Assembly (NCBI GenBank): GCA_016186795.1
Contig: JACPKY010000002.1
Location: forward strand, 350,748 to 414,747
Length of the DNA stretch: 64,000 nt
DNA from: Candidatus Gottesmanbacteria bacterium
GTDB taxonomy: Bacteria; Patescibacteriota; Microgenomatia; 2-02-FULL-39-11
Reading direction: 5' to 3'
Shown: in pieces, positions 2,044 through 64,000 of the stretch
How positions within the stretch are numbered: position 1 is the first letter of the stretch
How the letters are laid out: each line of letters begins with the position of its first letter
The notes under the pieces: model-generated
Seen by the model: the letters and a program-made list of their open reading frames with translations, nothing else
Database searches by the model: none
Told to the model about the DNA's origin: nothing
Position numbers and translations under genes: made by a program

Positions 2044-2072
2044 AGAATAGAACCGTATTATAGCAGAACTTG

Positions 2073-5364: not shown

Positions 5365-5403
5365 AGTTTTCTACATTTTTCACCATTTTAAACCACTTTA
5401 TTC

Positions 5404-5433
5404 CATAATGCTACGAAATACCACCTCTGTCAA
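5404..5433 (-). promoter_or_regulatory. Candidate sigma70-type promoter for the mraZ operon. On the minus strand it is TTGACA, a 17-nt spacer, then CATTAT. GTGG-containing repeats lie downstream and may be an MraZ operator.
   Basis: Minus-strand TTGACA corresponds to plus 5428-5433 and the -10-like CATTAT to plus 5405-5410. GTGG/GGTG repeats (plus CCAC/CACC) occur at about 5381-5396. Confidence 0.35.
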
Positions 5434-5467
5434 GAGGAATTCATAGAGAAGAAAAGAAAGAGGATCT

Positions 5468-47947: not shown

Positions 47948-49249
47948 TTAGTAAGAAAGTAAACTTTTATACTTTGCCAATCTCTTTTCTATTATCTCCA
48001 TACTTGTATCCTTATCATCTCTTTCTACAAAAAGACTTAAATTTAACATAGTAATAATCTTTATCACACTAGCTTTGAACTTATATTTTAGGCCTTTATA
48101 TTTTTGATTGCGTAAATATGCCTCAATGATTTCTTTTGTGCCTGTCTTTTCTTGAGAGTTTTGTTTGGCAGTTGCTAAAAATTTCGCTAATCCTTTTATA
48201 GGGTCCCCCTTTTTGAGAAAATGATTCACAGCCCAATTTCGAAGCTGAATATACGTATTTTTATTTGATTTCAACATTCGTAAAAGTTCTTCTTTCGTTT
48301 TCGCTTTTGGCACGTATCCGTACCACTCTCCTATTAGATCTTTCGGTAGCGGAAACGGCTCTAGCATAAGTATTGGTTTTTTTGCAATTGCTGCTTCAAT
48401 GAGACTCGTAGAGAAGGAAGAAACGACAATATCGCTTGCAAGTATCCAATCTCGAACGGTGTAGTCTTTGAGAATGTGTATTCTTTTTCCAAGTTCTGGC
48501 TCGAATTTTTGTACGGTTTCTAAAAACGTAGTATAGGAAGTGGCCGGTCGTGGCCGGATAATAATTTCTACATTGTCACTTTTTTTTAGAAATCGTAACC
48601 AATGGAGCACCTCGATAAGCGATTTACCGCAATAATCTCTCATTTGATAGACAGCTTTCCTGTCTTGGCCATTTTTTATTATCTCTTCAATCAAATGGTC
48701 AGAGTAAAAGTACCAAGAATAATTCTCTGGGAAAAATATCCATTTTTTCCGTTGGTCTATATCAAATTTTTTCCCTAAGATTTCTCTTGACGCGAATACT
48801 TTCCTGTATGGAGGGAAATAAAGGTAGTAAGCTGGTTGACCATTCACGAATATGTGGCTCTCTGGGACTCCTCTATCCTGTAAGAATATCGCCCGCTGTT
48901 TACTCCACGCATGATGGAGAACGCATTTCTTCGCAAAAGAGTCTCGAGGTGCTTTATATTCAATGTTTGCTCTATAAAATACTTGTTCCCAGGAAAGATT
49001 TACAAATGTTGCATCGTTCCAAGATGAAAGGTAATGTTTGAGTCCAGAATCATGTATGGAGTAACAATACGGTAAAAGAACAATTGTGGGATGAAATTGT
49101 TGAGTAAAAGAGGTAGGACGGGGATGGAAAAAGGGGAGAATCTTTACCTTCTTTTGATATTTTGATTCCAAAAGTGCTGTGGTTGCACAAGCTACGTCAA
49201 GTTCTCTCGCAAAGTGTTCAATAAACCAGACAATATCTAATTTCTCCAT
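47948..49249 (-). CDS. GT-B-fold protein of the KpsC/KpsS/TagF-like type (CMP-/CDP-activated donor transferases)
   Basis: IIRPRPATS ... ILASDIVVSSFSTSLIEAAIAKKPILML resembles the HP....NS/T-x-G-x-E-A...G-KP-v core of Capsule_synth/TagF-like enzymes. It is paralogous in pattern to 60269-61915 and 62806-end. Confidence 0.4.
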   Translation of the reverse strand: MEKLDIVWFIEHFARELDVACATTALLESKYQKKVKILPFFHPRPTSFTQQFHPTIVLLPYCYSIHDSGLKHYLSSWNDATFVNLSWEQVFYRANIEYKAPRDSFAKKCVLHHAWSKQRAIFLQDRGVPESHIFVNGQPAYYLYFPPYRKVFASREILGKKFDIDQRKKWIFFPENYSWYFYSDHLIEEIIKNGQDRKAVYQMRDYCGKSLIEVLHWLRFLKKSDNVEIIIRPRPATSYTTFLETVQKFEPELGKRIHILKDYTVRDWILASDIVVSSFSTSLIEAAIAKKPILMLEPFPLPKDLIGEWYGYVPKAKTKEELLRMLKSNKNTYIQLRNWAVNHFLKKGDPIKGLAKFLATAKQNSQEKTGTKEIIEAYLRNQKYKGLKYKFKASVIKIITMLNLSLFVERDDKDTSMEIIEKRLAKYKSLLSY

Positions 49250-51180
49250 AGTCGATGTATTGTCTGCTGGATGGTATTGCTATCAAGGCCTAAATACTTT
49301 AATACCTCTTCTCTAAATCCGGTTTGTGGAAAATCTCTCAAAGCAATATGCTCAACACGAGGAAACTGTATGCCATGAATAGTAAGATAGGCAAGTAAAC
49401 TCTCTCCAAATCCTCCTTTTTTATAGTGATCTTCAACAATGAGAAGCGGAATGCCACGTTTTGAAGCATCAAGCAACTGCTTTCTATCAAATTCTATCAA
49501 CCACGGCTGATTCCAAACTTCAACAGATATTCCATCTCTTTCCAGATTGATAGCAGCAACTATCGATTCGGCGATAACAACCGGACCGATTCCAATAACA
49601 AGAATATTTTTCCCTTCTCGTAAAATATGAGCTTTTCCCTTTTCCAGATTTTTGGAAGGTGTATTTAATTCTACTTTTCCAGAAGCCATAGACAGCCGCA
49701 CATACAAAATGTTTCCCAGCTCATTATTGAAATAACGTCCGAGAACGTTCTCTACATCTTTCGGTGTTATTGGTTGATACATGGTAACACCTGGAATATT
49801 TTTTATACAGGCAATATCACGAAATGCCTGATGTGATTTTCCGGGTGTTGCCGGAATTACCCCGGACATATTTCCGACAATAATCGCCTTTCCACCCTCA
49901 GTTGCAAGATTATAAAGTTGCTCATTCGCTCGTGAAGTGAGAAACGCAGCATAGGTAGAAACAATCGGTATTGTCCCTGATCTTGAAAACGCAGCTGCTG
50001 TTGAAACCATGTGCTGCTCCATAATCCCCATCTCAAAAAACCGTGTGTGATTTCTTTTATGGAATTCTACAAACCCTGAGTCTTCCTCAAGGTCTCCATC
50101 GAGCGTTACAAATTGATACTTTTTTGCAAAGTCTAAAAGAGCATCTGAAAATCCTGTAATAAGACTTGAACCACGCACATCTTTTTGCATTGGCTCTTTC
50201 GGAATATCCTTAAGTGATAAACTTAAATCAATGACGAAGCCAAAACTACTCATTAAATCCTTCACTCTTTTATAAATTTCTCTTAATGCCTGGTCTAACT
50301 GTTTCCTGTCAGGAGCTTTGTTGTGCCATATATATCGATCTATTTTGCTTTTTAAAACATTAGGATGCTCCATGTAAGAAACACCTTGACCTTTCACGGT
50401 GCGCATATAGAGTAATTTCGGTTTCTTTGACTTTGCAAGTTTCATGAATCCATCATGGATATTTTTAATCTTTTTACCGTTTTTTTCTACGACAGTAAAA
50501 CCAAGGGACGACAGTGTATGTACTATATCGTTATACTTAAGAATATTTTGAGTGAACTGGTCCGTCTGAACGCTATTATCATCAATAATGATGTAGAGGT
50601 TATCTACTTTGAAACTTACTGCCGAAAGAAGCGATTCCCACAATTGACCCTCTTGAAGTTCTCCATCTCCAACAATCACGATGACGCTTCCTTTATACCC
50701 CATACGCTTTTTAAAAAGTGCGAAACCAACAGCTTTTGAAATTCCCATAGCAAGGGATCCCGTGTTTGCTTCAATTCCAGGAGTTTCAATATCACAATGT
50801 CCGGAAAGACCATGAAGACGGCGCAACCGGTTAAGATTTTCGATTGGAAAGTAGCCTTTTGCAGAAAGTGTAGCATAAAGAGATGGGACGGCGTGACCTT
50901 TGGAAAGGATAAAAATATCTCTGTCTTTGGAGGAACTCTCTTTGGGGGAAAAGGAAAATGATCGAAAATATATTTCTGTAAGGAGTTCAATGATGCTAAG
51001 GGAAGCTCCCAGATGTCCAGTCCCTGCCCTTGCTACACTAAGTAGTGTATTGTATCGGATCAAATCTGCGATGGCACTCAAAATCTTTGCTTTTCCTTTT
51101 CCTCCCTGAGATTTTTTTTCAAGAAAGAGAAAACTTTCTTGGGAAATAAAACCTAGATTATTTAATAGATTCATAATCAA
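49237..51180 (-). CDS. Transketolase-like enzyme with N- and C-terminal sections fused (647 aa), the second transketolase in the locus
   Basis: TPP-binding N-terminus (ARAGTGHLGASLSIIELLTEIYF, GSLAMGISKAVG), then pyrimidine-binding and C-terminal domains. Confidence 0.8.
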   Translation of the reverse strand: MIMNLLNNLGFISQESFLFLEKKSQGGKGKAKILSAIADLIRYNTLLSVARAGTGHLGASLSIIELLTEIYFRSFSFSPKESSSKDRDIFILSKGHAVPSLYATLSAKGYFPIENLNRLRRLHGLSGHCDIETPGIEANTGSLAMGISKAVGFALFKKRMGYKGSVIVIVGDGELQEGQLWESLLSAVSFKVDNLYIIIDDNSVQTDQFTQNILKYNDIVHTLSSLGFTVVEKNGKKIKNIHDGFMKLAKSKKPKLLYMRTVKGQGVSYMEHPNVLKSKIDRYIWHNKAPDRKQLDQALREIYKRVKDLMSSFGFVIDLSLSLKDIPKEPMQKDVRGSSLITGFSDALLDFAKKYQFVTLDGDLEEDSGFVEFHKRNHTRFFEMGIMEQHMVSTAAAFSRSGTIPIVSTYAAFLTSRANEQLYNLATEGGKAIIVGNMSGVIPATPGKSHQAFRDIACIKNIPGVTMYQPITPKDVENVLGRYFNNELGNILYVRLSMASGKVELNTPSKNLEKGKAHILREGKNILVIGIGPVVIAESIVAAINLERDGISVEVWNQPWLIEFDRKQLLDASKRGIPLLIVEDHYKKGGFGESLLAYLTIHGIQFPRVEHIALRDFPQTGFREEVLKYLGLDSNTIQQTIHRLWRN

Positions 51181-51934
51181 GTGTGAAAGGCGTGTGTAAA
51201 ATTTTTGGCAATGTTGCTTTTCCCTCCTTTATAAGCCGCTGGGCATAGTACCAATCATACTCCGTGTTCACATCGACTCCTTCATCATCTTTGGTAAAAA
51301 ATGGCATGATTGCCTCTCCCGAAATAGAATGGTGTTCAAATACACATCGAGTTTTTGCAATCTCCAAACTTGCATTCTGCATATACACTTCTGGAAGAGA
51401 TGGGTACTGAAGACTGTGCCAGAGAATACCTTTTTTATGAGGATTTTCCATGACGGGTTTCATTCGATTTTTTTCCTTATCCACAATCCACATTTTCGCT
51501 GGATGATGCGTGGTTTTCTCTACCGCACGAAGAGAATCTACGTTTGGATTATTAAGGATCATATTCCATGCTCGCTTAAGTGTTTCTGGTTTTCTAAAAG
51601 GACTAGTTGGTCTTAAAATTGCAAAATAGTCATATAACTCTCCTTTTTCTCTCAAAAATTGAAGAGTGTAGGATATCCACTCGATATCAGGAGATGTTTC
51701 TTGGGCAAATTCAGATGGGCGTAAGAATGGAACATCTGCTCCATAATATCTCGCAACATCTGCATAGAGTTTACTATCCGTTGAAACAATAACTTTTGAG
51801 AAAATGTTTGACTCCAAAGACGATACTATACTGTATGCAAGGAGTGGATGGCCATACAGTTCTCTGATATTTTTGTGTTTAATTCTCTTCGAACCGGACC
51901 TTGCAGGAATAAGAGCTATGCAAGAATGTTTCAT
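51158..51934 (-). CDS. CMP-sugar synthetase (acylneuraminate/pseudaminate/Kdo cytidylyltransferase family, CTP_transf_3)
   Basis: N-terminal IALIPARSGSKRIKHKNI motif typical of NeuA/PseF/KdsB-like cytidylyltransferases. Confidence 0.85.
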   Translation of the reverse strand: MKHSCIALIPARSGSKRIKHKNIRELYGHPLLAYSIVSSLESNIFSKVIVSTDSKLYADVARYYGADVPFLRPSEFAQETSPDIEWISYTLQFLREKGELYDYFAILRPTSPFRKPETLKRAWNMILNNPNVDSLRAVEKTTHHPAKMWIVDKEKNRMKPVMENPHKKGILWHSLQYPSLPEVYMQNASLEIAKTRCVFEHHSISGEAIMPFFTKDDEGVDVNTEYDWYYAQRLIKEGKATLPKILHTPFTLDYESIK

Positions 51935-51945
51935 ATGATTCTCTT

Positions 51946-53955
51946 TTACTTATAACCTCTCTTGCCGATTTTCACCAGAACATATGAACTATTCTGAATT
52001 ATTAATTTGGCATTGTTCGTTTCGATGAGTTTTTGAATATAAGTATCGGGATTTATCGATAATTCTGAAGTGTCTATAAGTAAATAAACCGGATCATTCT
52101 TTATCTCAAAGACCATGTTTTGAAGTAACCTTTCATTTTCAGGATATAATACTAGATTTTCAATGATCTTTTGTCTTTGGGCATATTGAGAATGTCCTTG
52201 GATGTATAAATCTGATGTTTTGGCGAAATAAATTCTTCGCTGCACGATTGCGCTCAAGAGTTCTTGTTGTCTTGGCAAAGCGGCAACAATGGCGTTAGGT
52301 TCACTATTTTTTCTTATCCATACTGCTACTTCCTCCAATTTTCTATCTGTGGAAATGATCTTCGTACCCTGACTCTCAATGCCTGATGGAAACTGCTGAC
52401 GAGACGACGTATATGCGACGAGTATAAAAAGATACTGAAGAAAAGTGAAAATGAAAAAACCATAAAGAATAATCTTCTTAACTTTCTTTCCAAATATATT
52501 CGCATTATGCTCAATACCCTTGATAGTGAGGATAGAGAGAGGAATACTGGAAAGAAAAACAAATTTATATTGGTTATTATCCGGTAAAAGAAGAAATATA
52601 CTCAAAGAGAATAGCACAAAAAAAAGAACCGCTAGTGCAAAAAGTTTGATGGAGTTACTCTTGCCTATCATTGCCTTTAAACCATCATATGCAAAAGGAA
52701 GAAAGAGAAGATAGGTGAACTGGAAATCTAATAGAGAATATACCCGAAACGATAATCCAATATTAAATTCCTTAAATGCTTGCTGAATAGGTTGGATATA
52801 GGGATATATTAGAACAGAAACTGTTAAAATCGAGGCAAGTATGAAAAGAGATGTTTTCTCCGGTAACATGGAAGCTTTTTTCAAGGAGCCGAATATATCA
52901 ATAAGAGCAAAAAAGAATAAGAAAATTACAGCTGGAATGAATGAGACGGGATGAAATAAAGCCAAACCCAGAAGAGTTATGAAAAGAGGGATCACTAGTT
53001 TTCGTATGGGAAGCTCAGTTAACTTTACAATGATTAGAACTAAGGTGAGATTCAAAACAAATCCAAGTCTGAATCCATCAATACTCAGAAATTTATGGAC
53101 AAGGTCTAGCAATCGCCCGTCAACAGGAAATATCTTAGCGATATTCGTGATCGCACTAGGATCTAGAGTTTTAAATGTACTATAAATACCTGGATTTCTT
53201 ATTAATCTCACTAAAAAAACAGTCCCATTATATAATCCTGGTCCCATCACCAAAAGGAAAGCACCAAGAATTTGTAGACTTGAATTTTGAACAAAATTTC
53301 TTGAGAGTAAAAATCCAATGGTAAAGACAGAAAATATTGACATCAAACCAACAATTACGCTGACTTGCAACGCTGACATATTGAGAATAATTGATCCAAC
53401 GGCAAGATACAAAGAATACAACCAATATGTGTTTATGGGGATACCTGCCAGAGCAAAATGGTCAGGAGGTATGATACCATTCATAATTTGATAGACTATT
53501 GGCAAGTGTATGTTTCCTTCATAAGACTGTTGTACCCGTATAAATGACAAAGGTATTACAACCAAAGAAGATAAACAAAGCATAAGAACCAAAATTTCTT
53601 TTTCTTTAGCTAAGGATATGTACCTGGCCTGTTTCTTTGTAATTAAAAGATAGAAAGAGGAAAGAAGAGTATAAGCGATAATAGATCCAGTGGTGAAGGA
53701 AAGAGAAAAATGCATAAGGTAAGAAATGAAATAGCCCATTATAACAATCAAAGAGGAAGAAAGAGGGAAGGCAAGTGCACTTACTTCTAGAAGAGTCAAA
53801 TGAGATGGCACTGCAATGGCTAATAAATTAAATCCATTTAAGAAAAAGAGTACTGGCAATACATAAAGATTTGCTTGGAGAGAGAAAATTTTTTGGATAA
53901 TAAATAATACAAAAGAACAAATGAGCGAAATTATGACTATTCTCTTTACGGACAT
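51946..53955 (-). CDS. Polytopic membrane protein with a C-terminal soluble domain (candidate Wzy-like polymerase or GT-C)
   Basis: 669 aa, more than 12 TM helices, and a roughly 150-aa hydrophilic C-terminal domain. Confidence 0.4.
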   Translation of the reverse strand: MSVKRIVIISLICSFVLFIIQKIFSLQANLYVLPVLFFLNGFNLLAIAVPSHLTLLEVSALAFPLSSSLIVIMGYFISYLMHFSLSFTTGSIIAYTLLSSFYLLITKKQARYISLAKEKEILVLMLCLSSLVVIPLSFIRVQQSYEGNIHLPIVYQIMNGIIPPDHFALAGIPINTYWLYSLYLAVGSIILNMSALQVSVIVGLMSIFSVFTIGFLLSRNFVQNSSLQILGAFLLVMGPGLYNGTVFLVRLIRNPGIYSTFKTLDPSAITNIAKIFPVDGRLLDLVHKFLSIDGFRLGFVLNLTLVLIIVKLTELPIRKLVIPLFITLLGLALFHPVSFIPAVIFLFFFALIDIFGSLKKASMLPEKTSLFILASILTVSVLIYPYIQPIQQAFKEFNIGLSFRVYSLLDFQFTYLLFLPFAYDGLKAMIGKSNSIKLFALAVLFFVLFSLSIFLLLPDNNQYKFVFLSSIPLSILTIKGIEHNANIFGKKVKKIILYGFFIFTFLQYLFILVAYTSSRQQFPSGIESQGTKIISTDRKLEEVAVWIRKNSEPNAIVAALPRQQELLSAIVQRRIYFAKTSDLYIQGHSQYAQRQKIIENLVLYPENERLLQNMVFEIKNDPVYLLIDTSELSINPDTYIQKLIETNNAKLIIQNSSYVLVKIGKRGYK

Positions 53956-53975
53956 ATTTTTTCCTGGCTGTTTGT

Positions 53976-55439
53976 TTATACACGAGAGGGATTGTATTTA
54001 ATGTACACAGTTTTCCATTCGGAATAAACATCAAGTGCTTCTGTCCCTGGTTCTCTGTGACCGTTGCCTGACTTTCCTACACCTCCAAAGGGCAAATGTG
54101 GTTCGCTCCCAAAGGTAGGCCCATTCACTGATACCAGTCCAACCCGTACTCTATGTATAAATTCTTGTATTCTATGAATACTTCTTGTATGAATTGCAGA
54201 TGTCAAACCATAATCAGTTGCATTAACAAGTCTTACTGCTTCCTCAAAATTTTTCACCTTAAATAGACATGTCACCGGACCGAAGAGCTCGCTTTGAGAA
54301 ATGGATGCATCCACTTTTGCTCCTTCAACAATTGTTGGTTCTATAAAAAAACCATTTTTCTTCTCACCTTTGACCAACCTCTTTCCACCCGCAATTACAT
54401 TCGCTCCCTGGAGTACAGCATGATCAATCTCTACAAGAATTTTATTCATTTGACTCTCATTAATCACAGGTCCTACATCATCTTTATCACCTGATCCAAC
54501 TTTTAACTGTTTTGTTTTTTGCACAAATTCTCTTTTAAACTGATCATATATTTTTTCAAAAATGATGAGTCTACTCCCGGACGAACACCGCTGGCCAGCG
54601 TTTGAGAAAGCAGATAAGACAGCGTAAGAGACAGCATCCTTCATATCTGCATCATCACATACAAGAAAAGCATTTTTTCCCCCCAGTTCCAGACTCACTT
54701 TTGCAATCCTACCACCCGCAACTTTTGCGATATACTCACCTACTTCACATGAGCCGGTAAAACTTACGAGATCCACTCTATCATCCTCGACAAGCGATCG
54801 ACCAACCTCCTCTCCAGATCCTTGAACAACATTAAAAACTCCTTTGGGAAGTCCGGCTAGTTGCAATATTTTTGCAAACCAGACAGGTGTGAATGGCGTA
54901 TCTTTTGCAGCCTTCAACACACAAGTATTTCCACAAAGAAGTGCTGGAAATGCTTTCCAGGAAACATTGGCAATCGGTGTGTTAAACGGAACAATGAGTG
55001 CACAAACTCCTATAGGTTGACGCATTGTATATGCGAAGCGGTTAAGTACCGCTGAAGTTGTCGTCCTTCCATAAAACCTTCTTCCCTCCCCTGCCATAAA
55101 AAATCCAAGCTCAATAGCTCCTGAAACTTCCACAAGTGAATCTTTGAAAGATTTTCCAGTTTCGGAAGATACAATAAAAGCAATTTCCTCTCTTTTTTCT
55201 TGGAGAATCAAAGCTGCGGTTCTTAGTATATCGGCTCTTTGAATAACGGGAGTATATGCCCACCGAAAGAAATGATCAGAAGCATAAGTTACAGCACTAT
55301 CTACATCTTCGCCTGTCCCCTTTTCTATGCGCGCGACTACTTTTCCACTCGTTGGAGAGATTTTTTCAATATACTTTCTCGAAGTGCTTTCAACTTCATT
55401 CCCATTAATAAAATGATAAATTCGTGAAGGGTATTTCAT
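53976..55439 (-). CDS. NAD(P)-dependent aldehyde dehydrogenase
   Basis: ELGGKNAFLV (catalytic Glu region), the Cys region FSNAGQRCSSGSR, and EPTIV...ELFGPV ALDH motifs. Confidence 0.9.
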   Translation of the reverse strand: MKYPSRIYHFINGNEVESTSRKYIEKISPTSGKVVARIEKGTGEDVDSAVTYASDHFFRWAYTPVIQRADILRTAALILQEKREEIAFIVSSETGKSFKDSLVEVSGAIELGFFMAGEGRRFYGRTTTSAVLNRFAYTMRQPIGVCALIVPFNTPIANVSWKAFPALLCGNTCVLKAAKDTPFTPVWFAKILQLAGLPKGVFNVVQGSGEEVGRSLVEDDRVDLVSFTGSCEVGEYIAKVAGGRIAKVSLELGGKNAFLVCDDADMKDAVSYAVLSAFSNAGQRCSSGSRLIIFEKIYDQFKREFVQKTKQLKVGSGDKDDVGPVINESQMNKILVEIDHAVLQGANVIAGGKRLVKGEKKNGFFIEPTIVEGAKVDASISQSELFGPVTCLFKVKNFEEAVRLVNATDYGLTSAIHTRSIHRIQEFIHRVRVGLVSVNGPTFGSEPHLPFGGVGKSGNGHREPGTEALDVYSEWKTVYIKYNPSRV

Positions 55440-55464
55440 AAATTTTTAATTTTTATAAACGTAA

Positions 55465-56259
55465 CTACCAAGCGGTAAACCCTCCGTTTACCTGCAGATT
55501 AGTCCCAGTGACGTAGGCAGATGCATCTGAAGCAAGGAATACCAAGGGGCCTCCCAAATCTGTTTCTTTTTGAGCCATACGGCTCAAAGGAATACGTGAT
55601 GAATATTTTTGGATAAATGTTTTATCCTGATTATTGAATACTCCTCCAGGAGATAATGTGTTGATCCGGATATTCCATTTTGCCAGGCGGGTTGCAAAAT
55701 AACGAGTCACTTGCATAAGTGCAGCTTTCGTTGCCCCATAATCCCATGGTTTATCAAACTGAAGATGAGTGTAGAATCTCTCATTGGGAGATCTCTCTCC
55801 ATAGAGGGATCCGATGTTTATAATTGACCCTTTCTTCTTCTTTTTCATATCCGCAATAAATTCATTGATACAATTGACCGCTCCAGATACATTCACATCC
55901 CACATCTTTTTTGCGTGAGGACGATTTTCCATGTATATTCCTATTTTTTGCGGAGGGATATCAATTCCAGCATTATTAACAAGAATATCAATAGGACCTA
56001 ATTCATTAAGTATTTTTTTATGAATTGTTTTTAACTGCCTAGGATTTGTAATATTACCTTTATAAAAAAGAAGGGAGGAAGAATGAAGAGTAAGAGTTGA
56101 AGGAATTGTCCTTTTGGGCAAGTCAATAATTGCAACATGTGCCTTTACATCAAGAAGTGCTTGTACAAACCACGGTCCTAAATTTCCACAACCCCCAGTA
56201 ACAACTGCAGTTTTTCCTCTGAGTAGAAATCGATCTAAAACAGGAATATATTTCTTCAT
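55465..56259 (-). CDS. Short-chain dehydrogenase/reductase (classical SDR)
   Basis: TAVVTGGCGNLG cofactor motif. YGATK (YxxxK) active site. Confidence 0.85.
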   Translation of the reverse strand: MKKYIPVLDRFLLRGKTAVVTGGCGNLGPWFVQALLDVKAHVAIIDLPKRTIPSTLTLHSSSLLFYKGNITNPRQLKTIHKKILNELGPIDILVNNAGIDIPPQKIGIYMENRPHAKKMWDVNVSGAVNCINEFIADMKKKKKGSIINIGSLYGERSPNERFYTHLQFDKPWDYGATKAALMQVTRYFATRLAKWNIRINTLSPGGVFNNQDKTFIQKYSSRIPLSRMAQKETDLGGPLVFLASDASAYVTGTNLQVNGGFTAW

Positions 56260-57320
56260 AAAACATCACCGAGAATAAACGCTTCATCTTTTTTTAATGT
56301 TCGCTTTAATTTCTTTCCTATCAATTCATCTACTTGATAGGGATGGAGTCCGCCTCCAGGAGATTTAAATGCAATATCATTTATTTCCAATACATGCCAT
56401 TTGGGTAGATTTTTTGTGGCAACAATCTTTTTCTGCATCTTTATGATGGCCTTTTTCTCACTCTCGTATACCTTTTTTACTCCATCTCCTAAAGCAGTTT
56501 TGACGCGCCGAAGATCTCGTACAAGTTTTCGCATTCCAATCGGCTCAAGAGAAAATACGTGATCAGTGCCTTTCATAACACGGTTGAGGGTAAAGTGCTT
56601 CTCAATAATACGTGCCCCCAAAACAAATGCAGCAACAGACATGGCAATGCCATTATCGTGTGCAGAAAATCCTATGATATTTTCTGGAAAATATTTATGA
56701 TATGAACGTATCACATGAAGATCAAGCTCTGAAAAGTCACTTGGATAACTTGCGGTACATTGAAGAATTGCAAGTTGTGGGTTTATAGACATAATAGATT
56801 CTTGCGCACGTCTCACATCATCAAGCCTTGCCCCGCCTGTTGACATTATCATCGGTTTACCTGCCTTTGCAATGTAGCGAAGAAGAGGAAGATGGACAAC
56901 ATCTGCTGAGGCAATCTTAAATGCTGGCATGGATAAGTCTTCTAAAAAATCTACGCTCTCAAAATCAAATGCTGTGGCAAAAAAGATTAAGTCAAGCTTT
57001 TTGGCATAATCTTGGAGTTCTCTATATTGAGATTTATCAAATTCAAGCGCTTCCCTGTGTCGTCCGTATGTCGGACCAAAAGCATTTTCCGAATTATAGA
57101 CTGAATTATAAAATTCTTTTGTATAGAGTTTTTTATTGTGACGCTTTTGAAGTTTCACCGCATCTACACCACACTCTTTTGCAGCTTTAAAAAGCTGTTT
57201 GCATATTTCTACACTTCCTTGGTGGTTGTGACCTATCTCTGCAATAACAAAACAGTCACTTGATTCAGAGATTGTATAATTTTTGATCCGTAAGATTCGC
57301 TTCTTGTTTTCCCCAACCAT
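56256..57320 (-). CDS. NeuB/PseI/LegI-family ulosonic acid synthase (PEP-dependent condensation; TIM barrel plus C-terminal SAF/antifreeze-like domain)
   Basis: DCFVIAEIGHNHQGSVEICKQLFKAAKECGVDAVKLQKR, and the C-terminal SAF domain (KSPGGGLHPYQVDELIGKKLKRTLKKDEAFILGDV). Confidence 0.9.
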   Translation of the reverse strand: MVGENKKRILRIKNYTISESSDCFVIAEIGHNHQGSVEICKQLFKAAKECGVDAVKLQKRHNKKLYTKEFYNSVYNSENAFGPTYGRHREALEFDKSQYRELQDYAKKLDLIFFATAFDFESVDFLEDLSMPAFKIASADVVHLPLLRYIAKAGKPMIMSTGGARLDDVRRAQESIMSINPQLAILQCTASYPSDFSELDLHVIRSYHKYFPENIIGFSAHDNGIAMSVAAFVLGARIIEKHFTLNRVMKGTDHVFSLEPIGMRKLVRDLRRVKTALGDGVKKVYESEKKAIIKMQKKIVATKNLPKWHVLEINDIAFKSPGGGLHPYQVDELIGKKLKRTLKKDEAFILGDVL

Positions 57321-57357
57321 ATATCAAACTGCTATTATAACAGATAATACGGGTATT

Positions 57358-58425
57358 CTAGGTTATCCCCTTAAAAAGTCTATCCAGAGCTGCAAATGCC
57401 CCCTTTCTGTATATCTTATTTGGATTTCCTGGGGGGAAAGGTTTACGCGTTTTATCTAAGGCCTCTTTGAATGAATCGACTGAGTGAATATCCACAACAA
57501 AACAATAAGGCTGAAGAATGGAGGGAAGCCTTTCGTAGAGTCTTTTCGTAACCAATATATAACATTTGCAAGCAATTGCTTCTATTATCTTTGTCTTAAA
57601 TCCCGTACCAAAGTCAGAAAATATTGCGATTGCCCTTGCTTCTCCAAGTAAATCAAACGGTCTCTCAACAACTCCACTCAATTTTACTCTTTTCGGTAAC
57701 GTTTTCCGAAATACATTACTCCCGGTCATTGAAAATGTCCAATCATATTTCTTTGAACCCAATTTCTCTACAAGCTTTATAAAAAATCTTGCTGAGTCTT
57801 TAATGAACTCATTGGGCGATGTCGACATGTAACAAATACACCTTCTTTTTTTCTTTCTGTTTCGGGGAATAAATCGTTCATAGGATTTTGGGAGAAAATA
57901 AGGAAGATATACAATTTTCTTTGCCCCCAGAAATTGCCAGTATTCTTGGGAATCCCACTCTGATATTGATAAGATTTTATCAGAATTTCTTGCGCAGATA
58001 ATATCATCTTTCAATCGTAAAAATCCTTCTTCGAGAGAGCGTATATTTTCCTTTAAAATATTTACAAAACTCCGAGAAAAGGAAACAATGCCTCTTGAGA
58101 GAATCTGATGTAGTCTGTGATAAAATTCTGCGTTGTGCACACGAATATAAAGACGGCAACTTGGAAAATACTTTCTTATATACATCATGGATTGTGGATA
58201 TCGGGAGTATTCGAAGAAGATATGTGTATATTTCCCAAATTGAATGTCTTCTATATTTTCCATCAGAAGTTTATCGGACCGCTCTCTCACCCAATATTCA
58301 TCAACTGGTATTTTCCTTGCTTTAAAATATTCAGTTCTCCCTCGTACGTCTTTCGTACTCCCTAAAAACATATTACTTGGCTTTGTCAATGGTTTATCAA
58401 ATATATGAAGGACTCTCGTTTGCAT
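57358..58425 (-). CDS. Hypothetical protein, possibly a divergent GT-B glycosyltransferase
   Basis: C-terminal ARAIAIFSDFGTGFKTKIIEAIACKCYILV resembles the donor-binding C-terminal motif of GT-B enzymes. Confidence 0.35.
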   Translation of the reverse strand: MQTRVLHIFDKPLTKPSNMFLGSTKDVRGRTEYFKARKIPVDEYWVRERSDKLLMENIEDIQFGKYTHIFFEYSRYPQSMMYIRKYFPSCRLYIRVHNAEFYHRLHQILSRGIVSFSRSFVNILKENIRSLEEGFLRLKDDIICARNSDKILSISEWDSQEYWQFLGAKKIVYLPYFLPKSYERFIPRNRKKKRRCICYMSTSPNEFIKDSARFFIKLVEKLGSKKYDWTFSMTGSNVFRKTLPKRVKLSGVVERPFDLLGEARAIAIFSDFGTGFKTKIIEAIACKCYILVTKRLYERLPSILQPYCFVVDIHSVDSFKEALDKTRKPFPPGNPNKIYRKGAFAALDRLFKGIT

Positions 58426-58429
58426 ACAA

Positions 58430-60265
58430 TTAATTGCTTCCTTTCTCTACATACCAGTTCCCAATACTTATTCCATCAACCCAACCGTTTATAAGATGTT
58501 CTAAGCAATCTTTGGGAGATGCGACAATTGGTAATCCATGCCTGTTGAAAGATGTATTAAGAAGTACTCCGATACCGGTCTTTCGCTTAAATTCAATCAA
58601 AAGATTGTACACCCATGGATGGAAATTTTTATCCACTACCTCAGGACGCATCGTACCATCGACATGTACAGCTGCAGGGATTGTTTTTTTAGCAAAAGTA
58701 TTTGCCTTGACGATGAATGTCATATATTTATAATTTGCATCTCCTGACCAATATTTATGAGCATCTTCCTTTAGTAGAACTGGTGCAAAGGGAACAAACA
58801 GTTCTCTCCCTTTGAGGATTCGATTAATTCTATCCTTTATCGATATGTCTCGTGGATCAGCAAGGACAGATCGGTTCCCAAGAGTACGGGGCCCCATTTC
58901 AAGTCTTCCTTGGAATGTACCAATTACCTTTCCCTTTGTCAGTTCTTGAGAAAGATGTGATACTGAACCGTTTCTTATCGTTATTGGATATTTCTGTCTG
59001 AAAGATTGAAGGGTTTTCTCAATCTCAGAATCAGTGAATTGTGTCCCCAAAAATGGATTCTCCCAAGCAAGTGAAGAAGTTATAAATCCTTCCTGATACA
59101 GTGCTTCAAGTGCAGCACCAGCTGCAAGACCACTGTCTCCACTATCCGGATAAACAAAAAAAGCTGACGGAGTAAGTCTATTTTTAATAAGTGAATTTCC
59201 TTTCACATTTAGAAATACTCCTCCTGCCGCTGCAATATTTTTGCTCTTTGTTAAATGCATGGCGTCTTTTACGTATTCGAACATACATCTCTCACATACC
59301 TTTTGGGCAAAAAACGCAAGATCTTCTCGGGAGTACGTTTTAAGTAATCTCTCAAAATCTTCTGCCTGAGACACAGATGAAAGTGGATTTGGAACTTTTT
59401 TATCGGGATGGGCAAGATTGAAACTGCGCCACTTCCAGGCAATGTGTGACTTCAATCTCCCATCATGACTTGAAACTATATGATGAAAAGGGTTTTTCTT
59501 CCCTCGAGAGCTCCCAAATGCAGCAAGACCCATTGTTTTATATTCACCATCAACCGGAATAAATCCAAGAGCTTCTGTGACTGCTTGATAAAAAGCTCCA
59601 AGACTATCATCTGCTTTTGATGCCCGCTGAAGGACCATTTGGCCATCTGAAAATCCTTTATAGATTGTTCCGCTCAAGCCATCACCTTTTCCATCAAGAG
59701 TTACTACGCATGCATTTTTAAAGCCAGAGAGCCGAAATGTAGAGGAGGCGTGTGCACGGTGATGGGAGATGTAGTAATAAGAAATCCGAGGATGGAAAAG
59801 ACCTATTTCAGAGAGGAATTTCTCATTGAAAAGATAATGCCGTTTGTAGTATTTTCCCCAATTCTTTTTAATAAGTTCTTCTAATCCTATTCTCCTTTTA
59901 TCATGCATTCCCCATCCAAAATCTTCTAATAAATTTTTCCTCATCCAATCATGAATGATTTGCATTTTGGAGACAATTCTTTTCTTTCTGCCATAAACAT
60001 CAACGATAATACTTCTTTGATATTTGGGATAAAATATACTACTTGAAGTAAATGCAACGATAGAAATATCGGCAGGTGTGAGATTACAAAAGTCTAAAGC
60101 CGCAAGAATAGACTTTTTCGGAAACCCATAATAGTGTTTTATACGAGATATCCTCTCCTCCTGAATAGAGAAGAGAATTCCTTTGGGTGAACAGACACTA
60201 ACAGATGCATCGTGCGCCCAGTGTATTCCTAGTGCATATGGGCCATTGTTATTTACTCGGATCAT
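58430..60265 (-). CDS. NodU/CmcH/TobZ-family carbamoyltransferase (O-carbamoylation of a sugar)
   Basis: N-terminus ALGIHWAHDASVSVCSPKGILFSIQEERISRIKHYYGFP matches the Carbam_trans_N pattern (L-G-x-x-x-HD-[SA]-[AS] ... EER..R.KH...FP). 611 aa. Confidence 0.85.
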   Translation of the reverse strand: MIRVNNNGPYALGIHWAHDASVSVCSPKGILFSIQEERISRIKHYYGFPKKSILAALDFCNLTPADISIVAFTSSSIFYPKYQRSIIVDVYGRKKRIVSKMQIIHDWMRKNLLEDFGWGMHDKRRIGLEELIKKNWGKYYKRHYLFNEKFLSEIGLFHPRISYYYISHHRAHASSTFRLSGFKNACVVTLDGKGDGLSGTIYKGFSDGQMVLQRASKADDSLGAFYQAVTEALGFIPVDGEYKTMGLAAFGSSRGKKNPFHHIVSSHDGRLKSHIAWKWRSFNLAHPDKKVPNPLSSVSQAEDFERLLKTYSREDLAFFAQKVCERCMFEYVKDAMHLTKSKNIAAAGGVFLNVKGNSLIKNRLTPSAFFVYPDSGDSGLAAGAALEALYQEGFITSSLAWENPFLGTQFTDSEIEKTLQSFRQKYPITIRNGSVSHLSQELTKGKVIGTFQGRLEMGPRTLGNRSVLADPRDISIKDRINRILKGRELFVPFAPVLLKEDAHKYWSGDANYKYMTFIVKANTFAKKTIPAAVHVDGTMRPEVVDKNFHPWVYNLLIEFKRKTGIGVLLNTSFNRHGLPIVASPKDCLEHLINGWVDGISIGNWYVEKGSN

Positions 60266-60268
60266 TCG

Positions 60269-61915
60269 TCATAAATCCTCATGAGGAAATACAAATGGTG
60301 TACCTTTGAGTATTCCGTCACACATAGTTGTAAGACCTGGATATTTTCCTGTTAGCAAATCATGTAGTCCCTCTAAATTCAAAGTAAACGTGAACTTTTC
60401 TTTGGATTCAATGAAAGGTAGTGGAATCATACGTCTGAAAAAGAAATGAAATGCATATTTTTTTGCCATATTTACTTGACGATCTGTTAATTTCTTCTTA
60501 AACGGTAGTTTGTCAAGAATCTTTTTGTACTCTTTTTTACTTGTTACGTCAATAGAAAAGCCTTTATTTCTGATCCATGACTCTCCACATACGATCATGG
60601 GTATTCCAAGTGGGGAAAGTTCAATACCGGTTTTTGTATTGTAGATAATAACGGCATTACACTTTTCCATAACCGCATAAGTACTGATTGTGCTTTCAGG
60701 AGGAATAATTTTTATGTTGGAGGCAAGATGAGGATAGTATTTTTTTATTTCTGAAAGTAATGGCTGTCGAGAAGGAACCAACCCATGTATTTCTGCAGGA
60801 TGAATTCGTATAAGAAGTTGAATACTTTTCCTTTTTGAAAAATATGAAATTGTTGTCAAAACCCAATCTATCATATTATCAAAAGCAACCGAATTGTAAT
60901 GAAGACGTGCATCCCACATAACGTTTGTCAACACCCCAATACAAGGCTTTTTAAAATCTATACCAATGTTGTACTCTATCTTACCAACGTCCTCTAATGG
61001 ATTTTCATGAAACCATATCCAATCAGAAGTACCAGAACGTCTTGAGTAAAGATACGTATCTAACCGTTTTTCAAGTTTTGGAGTTAATTGTAAGTTCTTC
61101 CATACATCCGCTTTCTCCTCTAACATCGTATGATGGTACGTATCACCATGACTAAAAATGAATGTATGGCGCCTGTATGCTGGGTTCCAATTAACAATAC
61201 GTACTTTTTCCCTTCGACAAATCTCGCCAATAATACCTTGTGGGATATAAATACCATGATGAAAACAGGCTATATCATACTTTTTTTTCTTAAGTAAATT
61301 CTGCAAAGCATACGCAGAAAGAAATCCTGCATGGATGTATCTTTTTAGAACATCATTTCCAAAACGCTCTCCTTCAAGATCACCGCGGCCAAAATAGCGA
61401 AGAGTTCCCGCATATGCATGTTCTCCTAAAGCAACATGCTTATACATATACTCATCAACATGAGGCAGTGGCACATTATATGCGTTTGCTCTTGCTTGCT
61501 TTTGCTCTTTCTTACCAACTAACTCACTGTAGTAATGAATAGGAAGACCAAGAGGAGTAAAAACTTTTTTGCCGGCACTTAAACAGGAATCACAAATATT
61601 CAATTGACCTTTTTCTACTAGTTTTTGGGGATCAATTTTTGCAATTTTCGTCATTTGGCATGCCGGTAGAAATTTATCGCAAAGAAGTATATCAACACTG
61701 GCTCCCCGAAGAGTAAGGGAAACGGCCAAAGTACTTTCAAGTACTGTAGCATGGTTATACCCTCCAAGACTTGTTGCTATAAGGACGCGAGGACTTTTTG
61801 CTCTCTTTTTGGCATCTTCCCAATAGGATTTATTTTTTGCAATTATTTTTAACCAATCTACATGGAGATTTTTTCCTCGTCTGTTAAGTTTGGGAAATAT
61901 GGGTATGTCTACCAT
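60269..61915 (-). CDS. KpsC/KpsS/TagF-like GT-B-fold protein (paralog 2)
   Basis: IRIHPAE ... STISTYAVMEKCNAVIIYNTKTGIELSPLGIPMIV matches the Capsule_synth-like HP...v.t.nS/T.G.E.....G.P core. Confidence 0.4.
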   Translation of the reverse strand: MVDIPIFPKLNRRGKNLHVDWLKIIAKNKSYWEDAKKRAKSPRVLIATSLGGYNHATVLESTLAVSLTLRGASVDILLCDKFLPACQMTKIAKIDPQKLVEKGQLNICDSCLSAGKKVFTPLGLPIHYYSELVGKKEQKQARANAYNVPLPHVDEYMYKHVALGEHAYAGTLRYFGRGDLEGERFGNDVLKRYIHAGFLSAYALQNLLKKKKYDIACFHHGIYIPQGIIGEICRREKVRIVNWNPAYRRHTFIFSHGDTYHHTMLEEKADVWKNLQLTPKLEKRLDTYLYSRRSGTSDWIWFHENPLEDVGKIEYNIGIDFKKPCIGVLTNVMWDARLHYNSVAFDNMIDWVLTTISYFSKRKSIQLLIRIHPAEIHGLVPSRQPLLSEIKKYYPHLASNIKIIPPESTISTYAVMEKCNAVIIYNTKTGIELSPLGIPMIVCGESWIRNKGFSIDVTSKKEYKKILDKLPFKKKLTDRQVNMAKKYAFHFFFRRMIPLPFIESKEKFTFTLNLEGLHDLLTGKYPGLTTMCDGILKGTPFVFPHEDL

Positions 61916-61916
61916 C

Positions 61917-62819
61917 TTAGGGAAAAAACCTTTTTAGAAATAAAATCAATCTATTCATGTATCCCTTTTTCCGTACGAAATACCAAAACGCCATATAAAA
62001 TCCGATGAAAAAATTGGAATAGATGTGACGTCGGGGAAATAAACTGATAAAAACGATAAGTCCGATCATGTGAGTAAGTACAGGAAACCTCGCCCAAAAG
62101 GGTATTTTCCCATCTTCAAACAAACTCAAGTATTGATGGTGTATTTCATCATCAGCCGTACGTTTTAATTGAAAAAAACGTCGTTTCCACAGATATTTTT
62201 TTACTTGCTTAAACTGTCCCCAAACTGATAATTCCATCAGTACAAGTCTATCTGGCATTAGACAGTAGGGGTAAATACTTGTTCTTCTTAGTATATCTCT
62301 CCGCATAAGGCCATACGCCATATTGCCAACGTTGACCATCTTTTGACAAACAAGTTTTACTCTCTTCATCTTCGGAACTCTTGCTGTATCGAAATCGGAA
62401 AATCGGTATGAGAGTACTTTCCCTTTTTCATTTATAGCCTTTGTACGAGGATATGCAAGAACAACATCTCTATTTTCCTCGAGTATCAAAACTAGGATTT
62501 TAACAAAATTCTTATGCCAGATATCGTGATTTGAACCCCACATAAAGTATTCTCCATGAGTATAGTTAAAGACTTTGCGAAAATTTAAAATCGCACCCCT
62601 GTTTTTATCGCTTTGCAAAATCTTAATTCGTTTATCTTTCCTTGCAAACTCTTTACAAATCGAAAGAGTTGCATCGGTTGATGCATCATCTGAAACGATG
62701 ATTTCAATATGTTTGTATGATTGGGTAACTAATGATTGAAGCGCCTCTCGAATATATGGTTCTCCGTTATACGCTGGTATACCAATTGAGACGAGTTTTT
62801 TGTTATTAATTTTTTTCAT
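61917..62819 (-). CDS. Glycosyltransferase family 2
   Basis: VSIGIPAYNGEPYI...EIIVSDDASTDAT signature. Confidence 0.8.
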   Translation of the reverse strand: MKKINNKKLVSIGIPAYNGEPYIREALQSLVTQSYKHIEIIVSDDASTDATLSICKEFARKDKRIKILQSDKNRGAILNFRKVFNYTHGEYFMWGSNHDIWHKNFVKILVLILEENRDVVLAYPRTKAINEKGKVLSYRFSDFDTARVPKMKRVKLVCQKMVNVGNMAYGLMRRDILRRTSIYPYCLMPDRLVLMELSVWGQFKQVKKYLWKRRFFQLKRTADDEIHHQYLSLFEDGKIPFWARFPVLTHMIGLIVFISLFPRRHIYSNFFIGFYMAFWYFVRKKGYMNRLILFLKRFFP

Positions 62820-64000
62820 TTATCATTCGTAAACTTTCGATAATATCGGAGGCAGCCTCACCAGCTGAGGTATTGAGACCATAGGGCTGAATATAATTTC
62901 GAATAAAAAGATTTTGTGATTTTTTTAGTTCGTTACCCATCTTTTCTATTCTCTTTATATGCGCTATTGCTTGACCGATGGTATTGGCTTGCAAGTAAAT
63001 ATTTTTCTTTAAGAGATATTGAAAATGAAGAGCTTTTATGGCATTTGTACGTTCATACTCGTGAGGCCGAAGTGCAATAACCGGTTTTCCTATAATGACT
63101 GCATCAATCATTGCGCTTGTATTTATTCCAATAGAACAGATAGCATACTTTAAACTGAGACAAAATTCTTCTATCGCCTCTTTTGTGTCAGCTATTTCAA
63201 AGGAGCGAAAAAGCACTTTCACATTCCTGAGCTTTATTTGTTTAAATATCTCCTGATTTGCTCCATGAGGTCGTACGAGTAGAATTAAATTGCGAATTTC
63301 TTGATTGGGAGATTTTGCAATTTCTCTTGCAAGATTTTTAACAAGCCATGTCTCATCAAATGCAATATTTGCAGAAGATCCAAGATAGATAATATACTGC
63401 TGCCCCTCTTTGATACCTAATTTTCCAAAAAACTGTTTCCGCGTCTGGATCTTTTTACCGATTGTAAACCATTTGTCAAAAAGCGGCGCTCCCATGATTT
63501 TAATTAAAGACGAGGACACTTTATGGATCTGAGTTAATTCCTTCTTATGGATAGAATTCCAGGCTAAAAAAGTTCCTGGTCTCACATGAAAAAGTCCTTT
63601 TGTTGTGAGGTTATCCCAGCTATGAATAGCTATCACTGTCGGAATATTGAGTGCATTTGCTGCTTTTATATATTCGACTTCTTCCGAATAACGCATATTG
63701 ACCGGAGAAGCAACGACCACATGAGGTTTTTTTCCAATTAACTCCTTCATAATCTGACTATCAGGAGGTGCACTTTTTTCCAAAGAATGTAATACTCTCT
63801 CTATGAAATTCGAAGTTATGTATCTCTTAATAAGGCTCAATCGAAAGAGGAAACGAAGTATTCTCGGTTGGTACCCCTCCCATCTTTTAAGGTAAAATCC
63901 TGGATAACTTTTTTGTTTACAGTAGTATATATATGTTAATAACTCTCGGGACGGAAAAAGAATTTTTCTCCATAAATCGTCTCTTCGTTTAAGCCAACCA
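62806..64000 (-). CDS. KpsC/KpsS/TagF-like GT-B-fold protein (paralog 3). The N-terminus lies beyond the window end. The frame is open from 63840 to 64000 with no stop, and the listed TTG at 63840 is not the real start.
   Basis: LLVRPHGANQ ... KYAICSIGINTSAMIDAVIIGKPVIAL core. In-frame translation continues without a stop to position 64000. Confidence 0.4.
   Translation of the reverse strand, partial: GWLKRRDDLWRKILFPSRELLTYIYYCKQKSYPGFYLKRWEGYQPRILRFLFRLSLIKRYITSNFIERVLHSLEKSAPPDSQIMKELIGKKPHVVVASPVNMRYSEEVEYIKAANALNIPTVIAIHSWDNLTTKGLFHVRPGTFLAWNSIHKKELTQIHKVSSSLIKIMGAPLFDKWFTIGKKIQTRKQFFGKLGIKEGQQYIIYLGSSANIAFDETWLVKNLAREIAKSPNQEIRNLILLVRPHGANQEIFKQIKLRNVKVLFRSFEIADTKEAIEEFCLSLKYAICSIGINTSAMIDAVIIGKPVIALRPHEYERTNAIKALHFQYLLKKNIYLQANTIGQAIAHIKRIEKMGNELKKSQNLFIRNYIQPYGLNTSAGEAASDIIESLRMINEKN

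Follow-up and report, generated by a model that had tools for sequence, protein, structure and literature searches.

A conserved gene cassette with an atypical transketolase, probably for a tailored non-amino ulosonic acid, in Candidatus Gottesmanbacteria and many other bacteria

Introduction

Ulosonic acids, among them 3-deoxy-D-manno-octulosonic acid (Kdo), the sialic acids, legionaminic acid (Leg), pseudaminic acid (Pse) and 2-keto-3-deoxy-D-glycero-D-galacto-nononic acid (Kdn), are key surface sugars, and the known pathways to them follow a few templates. A 64,000-nucleotide stretch of contig JACPKY010000002.1 (positions 350,748 to 414,747, assembly GCA_016186795.1) from a Candidatus Gottesmanbacteria bacterium, hereafter called the window, carries a module at 47948-64000 that raises the question of which ulosonic acid is made, and how, when the gene of a NeuB-like synthase is accompanied by genes of a short-chain dehydrogenase/reductase (SDR) and an aldehyde dehydrogenase (ALDH). 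The original prediction, made from the letters of the DNA, was that this locus encodes the synthesis, CMP activation and, plausibly, transfer of a non-canonical 2-keto-3-deoxy-ulosonic acid. This view is supported by a collinear gene cassette that recurs over many phyla and by a synthase that scores below the cut-offs for NeuB and PseI. As a whole the prediction is borne out in part, its points on paralogy and carbamoylation being without support. The open reading frames (ORFs) named at the time are real and have the coordinates given for them, and Pfam confirms the NeuB and SAF domains, the SDR, Aldedh, CTP_transf_3 and Carbam_trans_N/C. The gene list was nevertheless incomplete, as it missed a transketolase (TK), a 669-aa membrane protein, a gene resembling glycosyltransferase family 1 (GT1) and a family 2 glycosyltransferase (GT2). 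Of the missed genes, that of the TK belongs to the conserved core, and no other enzyme of the module is as unusual.

On balance, we lean towards the reading that a cassette of five genes makes and CMP-activates a non-amino 3-deoxy-2-ulosonic acid, and that glycosyltransferases of the GT-B fold, from two remote families, attach it to a surface glycan.

A cassette conserved across phyla

Every gene of the module is carried on the minus strand, with the operon running from the window end downwards. Neighbouring genes overlap or sit at most 37 bp apart, so that the arrangement looks like one operon. The founding member of the cassette is a NeuB-family, phosphoenolpyruvate (PEP)-condensing ulosonic acid synthase with a SAF domain (56256-57320), which belongs to PF03102 with 257.5 bits against a cut-off of 22.1, the SAF domain scoring 27.2 bits against 21. 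Its gene overlaps by 4 bp with that of a classical SDR oxidoreductase (55465-56259; Pfam adh_short and adh_short_C2). An NAD(P)-dependent ALDH (53976-55439; Pfam Aldedh, 513.9 bits), a candidate CMP-ulosonic acid synthetase of the NeuA/PseF/KdsB type (51158-51934; Pfam CTP_transf_3, 76.2 bits) and the TK-family enzyme (49237-51180) complete the set.

Relatives were found by scanning one genome per species with an alignment of the synthase clade, and 80 loci were kept with 10-kb flanks. Relatives of the synthase were confirmed in at least 581 species-representative genomes, and homologues 57-78% identical occur in very many lineages. Grouping the ORFs of the loci into clusters gave noisy results for high-GC genomes, so partner genes were instead counted by tblastn with the window proteins over 83 loci, three of which come from the window's own species. 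These searches revealed a recurring collinear order, synthase-SDR-ALDH-cytidylyltransferase-transketolase, and in the 80 loci this is the usual setting of the synthase. The SDR, located beside the synthase, has a match in 70 of the 83 loci (median identity 43%), the ALDH in 58 (52%), the cytidylyltransferase in 55 (55%) and the TK in 40 (35%). Hosts of the collinear order include Melainabacteria/Vampirovibrionales, Acidobacteriota, Chloroflexota, Gemmatimonadota, Actinomycetota, Desulfobacterota, Alphaproteobacteria, Cyanobacteria, Planctomycetota, Elusimicrobia and the candidate phyla radiation (CPR), more than 10 phyla overall. Cultured carriers are found as well, such as Moorena bouillonii (PNG), Tistlia consotensis (USBA 355) and Geminicoccus harenae. 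For the composition of the cassette, 58 loci were assessed in which the downstream sequence covers 7 kb or more. All four partners are present in 24 of these, 11 of which have a phosphatase too; SDR, ALDH and cytidylyltransferase occur together in 10, and the SDR is the sole partner in 6.

The phosphatase is a KdsC/YrbI-type member of the haloacid dehalogenase (HAD) family of about 185 aa, and adjoins the synthase in 16 of the 80 loci. The KdsC model gives it 106 bits and the KDN-9-phosphatase model 83.6 bits, both below cut-off, and its best solved relative is 3mmz. The sister Gottesmanbacteria genome (L087) encodes a six-gene form, NeuB-SDR-HAD-ALDH-CTP3-TK, flanked by genes similar to that of the 433-aa GT-B protein (p433) described below. 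No aminotransferase, N-acetyltransferase, epimerase or dehydratase genes are part of the cassette.

Some loci (L027 and L078) carry, beside the cassette, a second NeuB/CTP3 pair that is only 28-31% identical, which argues that the synthase clade is functionally distinct from the pathways of those pairs. In the plasmid collection the sole cassette-type relative is located on the 1.6-Mb linear plasmid of Streptomyces sp. NBC_01237 (L084, 821718-822746 region), where the synthase is 49% identical and the region carries no listed annotation.

Identity of the synthase and its partners

The synthase was compared with NCBIfam cut-offs, PDB relatives and annotated plasmid genes. It remains under the cut-off of both the NeuB/NnaB equivalog TIGR03569 (299.5 bits, cut-off 399.65) and the PseI equivalog TIGR03586 (245.6 bits, cut-off 340.25). 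The closest solved relative is SpsE of B. subtilis (E 2e-50), trailed by PseI (8h2c, E 1.5e-40) and NeuB of N. meningitidis at E 1e-40 to 1e-35. Among the plasmid matches, it is at most 37% identical to genes annotated as neuB or pseI.

The cytidylyltransferase scores 142.3 bits on the PseF model (cut-off 205.7) and 23-36 bits on the KdsB models (cut-offs 155-281); judged from these matches it is a member of the CTP_transf_3 family with undefined specificity. Every NCBIfam match of the SDR is below cut-off, including those to gluconate 5-dehydrogenase, KduD and PtmA. The best models for the ALDH are the alpha-ketoglutaric semialdehyde and 2,5-dioxovalerate dehydrogenases, also below cut-off.

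An atypical transketolase

The TK is a full-length enzyme of 647 aa, of the short human type, with all three Pfam transketolase domains (Transketolase_N, Transket_pyr and Transketolase_C). It is closest to the human-type structure 4kxu (E 1e-64) and reaches 342 bits on the NCBIfam transketolase model, against a cut-off of 488. We aligned it with human TKT and 33 cassette orthologues, and residues are given here in human numbering. The thiamine diphosphate/metal-binding and catalytic residues H37, H77, H110, D155, N185, H258 and E366 are kept. The substrate pocket is altered: in the window enzyme R318 is deleted, H416 and R474 are both replaced by Met, and D424 by Pro. Three of these positions bind phosphate in the human enzyme. 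The deletion of R318 is shared by 33 of 33 orthologues; at H416, 32 of 33 have Leu, Tyr or Phe and one has kept His; and at R474 the orthologues have Ser, Ile, Cys or Thr. D424, which binds the 2-OH of the acceptor, is Pro in 32 of 33. Judged by these residues, a role of the cassette TK in the pentose phosphate pathway is unlikely.

From motif context, we take human R318, H416, R474 and D424 to correspond to R358, H461, R520 and D469 of the E. coli enzyme. An engineered E. coli transketolase, R358I/H461S/R520Q, has been reported to have raised activity on non-phosphorylated 5-keto-D-gluconate, yielding tartaric semialdehyde (PMC12016104). The same three positions are non-basic in the cassette TK, which by analogy looks like a natural counterpart of this mutant.

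A second TK in the window is split over two genes (33057-33959 and 32124-33053) and adjoins a LegB/RmlB-like NAD-dependent 4,6-dehydratase/epimerase (33844-34830). It is also devoid of the phosphate-binding residues, with a gap, Gly and Lys at R318, H416 and R474, and Ala at D424. On a nucleotide keto sugar, this enzyme may attach a C2 unit or take one off.

Proposed pathway

The presence of a PEP-condensing synthase, a CMP-forming activator and, in many relatives, a phosphatase from a group that dephosphorylates ulosonate omega-phosphates, together with the lack of amino-sugar enzymes, points to a non-amino 3-deoxy-2-ulosonic acid as the product. The first intermediate is probably phosphorylated. 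Going by family membership, the synthase would condense PEP with an aldose phosphate, for instance mannose-6-phosphate to give a Kdn-like acid, which the phosphatase, where present, would free from its phosphate. The SDR would then oxidise the penultimate side-chain hydroxyl to give a terminal ketol, the TK would remove the terminal C2 ketol unit from this non-phosphorylated keto sugar acid, and the ALDH would oxidise the new aldehyde to a carboxylate. The product would be a dicarboxylic 3-deoxy-2-ulosaric acid similar to 3-deoxy-D-lyxo-hept-2-ulosaric acid (Dha), of composition C7H10O8 if derived from a C9 acid. The cytidylyltransferase would form the CMP-sugar from it. Transfer to the surface glycan would be the task of a 548-aa KpsC/WbbB-like protein (p548) and of two proteins that resemble the nonulosonic acid (NulO) transferases of Tannerella, p433 and a 456-aa protein.

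We infer that oxidative cleavage of the side chain by the SDR, TK and ALDH probably leaves a Dha-like dicarboxylic acid. A TK without a phosphate site needs a matching role, and oxidative truncation of the side chain is the most coherent account that we found. KduD and gluconate 5-dehydrogenase oxidise a penultimate hydroxyl, and their presence among the sub-threshold matches of the SDR suggests the same activity for it. The proposed role of the ALDH as a semialdehyde oxidiser is suggested by its best models, which are 2-keto-acid semialdehyde dehydrogenases. By our stereochemical reasoning, the 8-keto form of Kdn would have the D-threo configuration that is required of transketolase donors. 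Its C6 oxygen would be the ring oxygen of the pyranose, which would make D424 superfluous and would fit the loss of this residue. The original prediction had left it undecided whether an aldehyde or sugar precursor is oxidised before or after PEP condensation. The phosphatase, the ALDH and the altered TK point to tailoring after the condensation, and away from precursor oxidation before it, although we infer this direction from the enzymes that are present. A similar sequence of dehydrogenase, TK cleavage and semialdehyde dehydrogenase has been proposed for the synthesis of tartrate in plants (PMC7970118).

Several observations speak against this pathway. ALDH, cytidylyltransferase and TK occur without the SDR in 7 of the 58 loci (Chloroflexota), SDR and ALDH without a TK within 10 kb in at least 15 loci, and a TK without the ALDH in a few. 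The Streptomyces megaplasmid encodes NeuB-SDR-TK, with a TK of the atypical type, but no nearby ALDH or cytidylyltransferase. A tblastn search of the 64-kb window found no YrbI phosphatase, and the subfamily matches of the SDR and the ALDH, all below cut-off, discriminate poorly. The mixed presence of SDR, TK and ALDH neither proves nor excludes the truncation, and the 10-kb flanks limit the co-occurrence test. In its full form the proposal would be the first biosynthetic route to a 3-deoxy-2-ulosaric sugar, in which a Kdn-type acid loses C8-C9 of its glycerol side chain by the successive action of a dehydrogenase for the penultimate hydroxyl, a phosphate-independent TK and an ALDH, followed by CMP activation and KpsC-like transfer. 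As a whole this chain of steps is tentative, and we hold it to be rather doubtful.

Alternative explanations

The locus could also encode an ordinary known pathway, to CMP-Kdn or to a variant of the sialic acid, Leg or Pse routes, with the SDR, ALDH and TK as unrelated neighbours. A NeuB with a YrbI phosphatase and a cytidylyltransferase makes up the Kdn-9-phosphate route of B. thetaiotaomicron (BT1713/1714). The score of the cassette phosphatase on the KDN-9-phosphatase model fits such a route, and so do loci with NeuB and SDR only, or with NeuB-CTP3-TK. Unrelated neighbours, however, would hardly keep their order and orientation beside the synthase over more than 10 phyla, with genes that overlap or abut. 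Furthermore, the TK pocket is altered throughout the family, unlike that of a housekeeping TK, and the synthase is below the cut-offs for NeuB as well as PseI. We therefore regard a known pathway as unlikely.

Marginally less probable still is that the TK works ahead of the synthase, providing it with an aldose phosphate that is in short supply, for example erythrose-4-phosphate or ribose-5-phosphate, and that the SDR and ALDH oxidise the terminal CH2OH of the dephosphorylated product, the chain being kept whole. The YrbI phosphatase does indicate a phosphorylated intermediate, shikimate-type clusters contain dedicated transketolases beside their PEP-condensing enzymes, and the loci with SDR and ALDH that lack a TK would be accounted for. 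Against this, the phosphate-binding residues have been lost from the TK (R318 in 33 of 33 and H416 in 32 of 33 orthologues), which argues against sugar phosphates as substrates, and SDRs seldom oxidise the primary alcohols of sugars.

The least probable alternative is that SDR, TK and ALDH build a glycolyl- or glyceroyl-type acyl or ketol substituent, or a C2 extension or branch, on an ulosonic acid that is not truncated, much as some deoxysugar pathways use transketolase/E1-like enzymes to attach C2 units to keto sugars. Although the NulOs of Tannerella bear glyceroyl groups (PMC5420450) and the split TK of the window may perform a C2 addition, the cassette contains no acyltransferase, ligase, carrier protein or amino-sugar genes, and the ALDH would have no role after ketol addition.

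Candidate transferases

Three genes of the module are candidates for the transfer of the ulosonic acid. These encode p548 (60269-61915), p433 (47948-49249) and the 456-aa protein, the 3' 1195 bases of which are within the window (62806-64000). The window end cuts this last gene, which was read whole in an identical contig (L001:3145-4515). A 344-aa ORF with a TTG start at 62806-63840 is an edge effect, since the frame is open to the window end and the real gene encodes 456 aa.

The three proteins had been described as paralogs with a likeness to KpsC, KpsS and TagF. BLASTP found no significant similarity among them, and close paralogy was rejected on this result and on the weakness of the match at profile level, which is confined to the C-terminal part. 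This match, between the p548 and p433 families, covers 119 columns of the C-terminal nucleotide-binding half (probability 52%, E 1.4e-4) and spans the HP/RP motif and the S/T-x-x-I-E motif. The shared core motif that had been noticed is thus real for these two proteins, and appears to reflect a remote GT-B kinship between two families instead of paralogy. A scan with PF05159 and PF04464, which had been suggested as a check, gave no match to either family for any of the window proteins taken alone. The likeness to TagF was not retained: PF04464, the TagF-type Glyphos_transf family, matches none of the three, and TagF appears solely among generic GT-B structural matches. Neither p548 nor p433 has a direct sequence match in Pfam or the PDB.

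For p548, a likeness to KpsC is supported by the predicted structure. Although p548 itself has no PF05159 match at E <= 0.1, all 35 of 35 aligned homologues match this family weakly (best E 1e-7), and two tested homologues (P0124 and P0128) pass its gathering score of 20 with 26.8 and 32.2 bits. The AlphaFold2 (AF2) model of p548 has a predicted local distance difference test (pLDDT) score of 89.8, and Foldseek ranks KpsC first. By its predicted structure the protein has a KpsC-like fold and is closest to the beta-Kdo transferases KpsC and WbbB, which makes it a candidate ulosonic acid transferase. Its HP motif reads IRIHPAE, with H372 and P373 invariant in the family alignment. The KpsC-type enzymes have their Asp nucleophile in a QxxxKD motif; in p548, D335 of an invariant W-D-A motif is a candidate for this residue. 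A p548-type gene is found behind the cassette in 20 loci. The N-terminal half has three invariant cysteines, C86, C108 and C111, and a nearly invariant one, C79. This pattern suggests a metal (zinc) site, which is not known from KpsC.

The other two proteins resemble the BFO_1060 family. The match of p433 to TIGR04396 is 91.7 bits (cut-off 125) and that to the BFO_1060 family (NF046086) 63.6 bits (cut-off 200). Its AF2 model (pLDDT 89.1) shows a generic GT-B fold, with UDP-GlcNAc 2-epimerases, TagF and GT4 enzymes as best Foldseek matches. We considered whether p433 could be a NeuC-like hydrolysing epimerase, which is unlikely given the generic nature of the GT-B match, the sequence kinship with the Tannerella family and the fact that it is not a core cassette gene. 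A p433-type gene is located behind the transketolase gene in Chloroflexota loci and in the sister Gottesmanbacteria genome. The 456-aa protein scores 27.6-28.2 bits on the BFO_1060 model (cut-off 200, E about 1e-6), as a second and very distant candidate of this kind; its relatives occur in 19 loci, with up to 4-5 copies per locus. The BFO_1060 family is that of the Tannerella forsythia transferase for Pse/Leg derivatives, validated by knock-out and complementation (PMC5420450). By their model matches, p433 and the 456-aa protein appear to be distant relatives of this nonulosonic acid transferase. In four loci of Vicinamibacterales/Acidobacteriota (L036, L052, L058 and L065) only the synthase and the SDR are close together, with 4-5 copies of the 456-aa-type gene around them. 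These copies may reflect polymerising or multiple transfer steps.

Lineage-specific genes and the surrounding glycan island

Four further genes of the module are lineage-specific additions outside the conserved cassette. Between the ALDH and the cytidylyltransferase lies the gene of the 669-aa polytopic membrane protein (51946-53955), with a weak DUF6541 match only. This gene and that of a 355-aa, weakly GT1-like glycosyltransferase (57358-58425; Glyco_trans_1_4, 27.6 bits, E 4e-6) were found only in contigs of the same organism; one other locus (L085) has a GT1 at the position equivalent to 57358-58425. The GT2 glycosyltransferase (61917-62819; Glycos_transf_2, 104.9 bits) has relatives near the cassette in 14 loci. 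The fourth is a NodU/CmcH-type O-carbamoyltransferase (58430-60265; Carbam_trans_N 112.5 bits and Carbam_trans_C 185.8 bits), which scores 129 bits on the NodU equivalog against a cut-off of 1000. It had been predicted to O-carbamoylate the ulosonic acid. Only 1 of the 80 other loci has a relative (31% identity). The enzyme is thus outside the conserved cassette, we see no link between it and the sugar, and we rejected it as a member of the pathway.

The module is larger than the window shows, since the locus does not stop at the window end: L001:1-3084 encodes a further p433-like protein at 41% identity, along with a GT2 and a methyltransferase of the Methyltransf_13/14 type. It is part of a continuous glycan-biosynthesis island of at least 54 kb (window 10241-64000), on the minus strand except at 29752-31425 and 34851-35747, that makes up about 5% of this roughly 1.1-Mb CPR genome. 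The island encodes DUF4012, a Bac_transf initiating transferase, a ManC-like nucleotidyltransferase, many GT1 and GT2 enzymes, a 1046-aa Wzy_C protein, a flippase, a DegT aminotransferase, several methyltransferases and five GT-C-like or unknown membrane proteins (PMT_2 twice, DUF2079, DUF6798 and DUF2142). Directly downstream of the module, GT11-type and GT10-type fucosyltransferase-like genes flank a DUF268 methyltransferase gene (47073-47942, 46180-47088 and 45239-46183), a trio that suggests a fucosylated and methylated glycan. At the other end of the window (168-7006) are genes of the cell-wall and division type, encoding a Cu-oxidase_4 family protein, a Mur ligase, a class B penicillin-binding protein, MraW and a PilM/LytR_C protein. 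Between these and the glycan island, RecO and a class II tRNA synthetase are encoded.

Novelty and significance

Our searches of the open-access literature did not bring up a description of the cassette, and the NCBI names for its parts are generic ('N-acetylneuraminate synthase family protein', 'capsule biosynthesis protein', 'hypothetical protein'). The type of pathway, leading from a NeuB-type synthase by way of CMP activation to a GT-B transferase, is already known. What appears to be new is the conserved tailoring trio with its phosphate-independent transketolase. Bacterial glycobiology, that of the CPR included, would gain a new pathway template from the cassette, and probably a new acidic monosaccharide as well. 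The TK subfamily without the phosphate-binding triad may represent a natural biocatalyst for non-phosphorylated keto acids, and the KpsC/WbbB-like proteins and those related to BFO_1060 would each widen a small family of ulosonic acid transferases. We know of no biosynthetic route to Dha. If the product is indeed a heptulosaric acid, the cassette would be the first route to that class of sugars, a biological counterpart of the periodate truncation of sialic acids that employs a natural version of the R358I/H461S/R520Q transketolase.

Comparison with known systems

The pathways for Kdn in B. thetaiotaomicron and for Kdo (KdsA/KdsC/KdsB) resemble the cassette in the condensation with PEP, in a cytidylyltransferase of the CTP_transf_3 family and in having no amino-sugar steps. 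They also share the YrbI-family phosphatase with the 16 loci and the sister genome mentioned above, though not with the window copy. They differ in that SDR, ALDH and an atypical TK are conserved only alongside the cassette described here. In the case of Kdo, the synthase differs as well, being of the NeuB fold and not the KdsA fold here, and matching none of the known equivalog models above cut-off. The pathways for N-acetylneuraminic acid, Leg and Pse draw their synthase and cytidylyltransferase from the same two protein families, whereas the cassette enzymes are below the NeuB_NnaB, PseI and PseF cut-offs and are not accompanied by a dehydratase, aminotransferase, acetyltransferase or hydrolysing epimerase.

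On the side of transfer, p548 shares the HP motif with the retaining beta-Kdo transferases KpsC/KpsS (GT107) and WbbB (GT99), and its homologues match PF05159. In contrast to KpsC and WbbB, to which it is only 9-14% identical, p548 has no PF05159 match of its own and a larger N-terminal part with conserved cysteines. With the NulO transferases of Tannerella forsythia (Tanf_01245/BFO_1060), p433 and the 456-aa protein have in common a model match, the GT-B fold and a neighbourhood of CMP-ulosonic acid pathway genes. Their scores, 63.6 and 27.6 bits against the cut-off of 200, set them apart, and the donor sugar is presumably different.

The closest parallel to the tailoring trio is the proposed tartaric acid route of plants and Gluconobacter, in which L-idonate dehydrogenase, 5-keto-gluconate, TK, tartaric semialdehyde and ALDH follow one another. 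The same three types of enzyme and the same chemical logic are found there, although the route in plants is itself not proven (PMC7970118). Here a NeuB synthase, a cytidylyltransferase and transferases accompany the trio, and this link would turn the logic to the biosynthetic tailoring of a glycan sugar.

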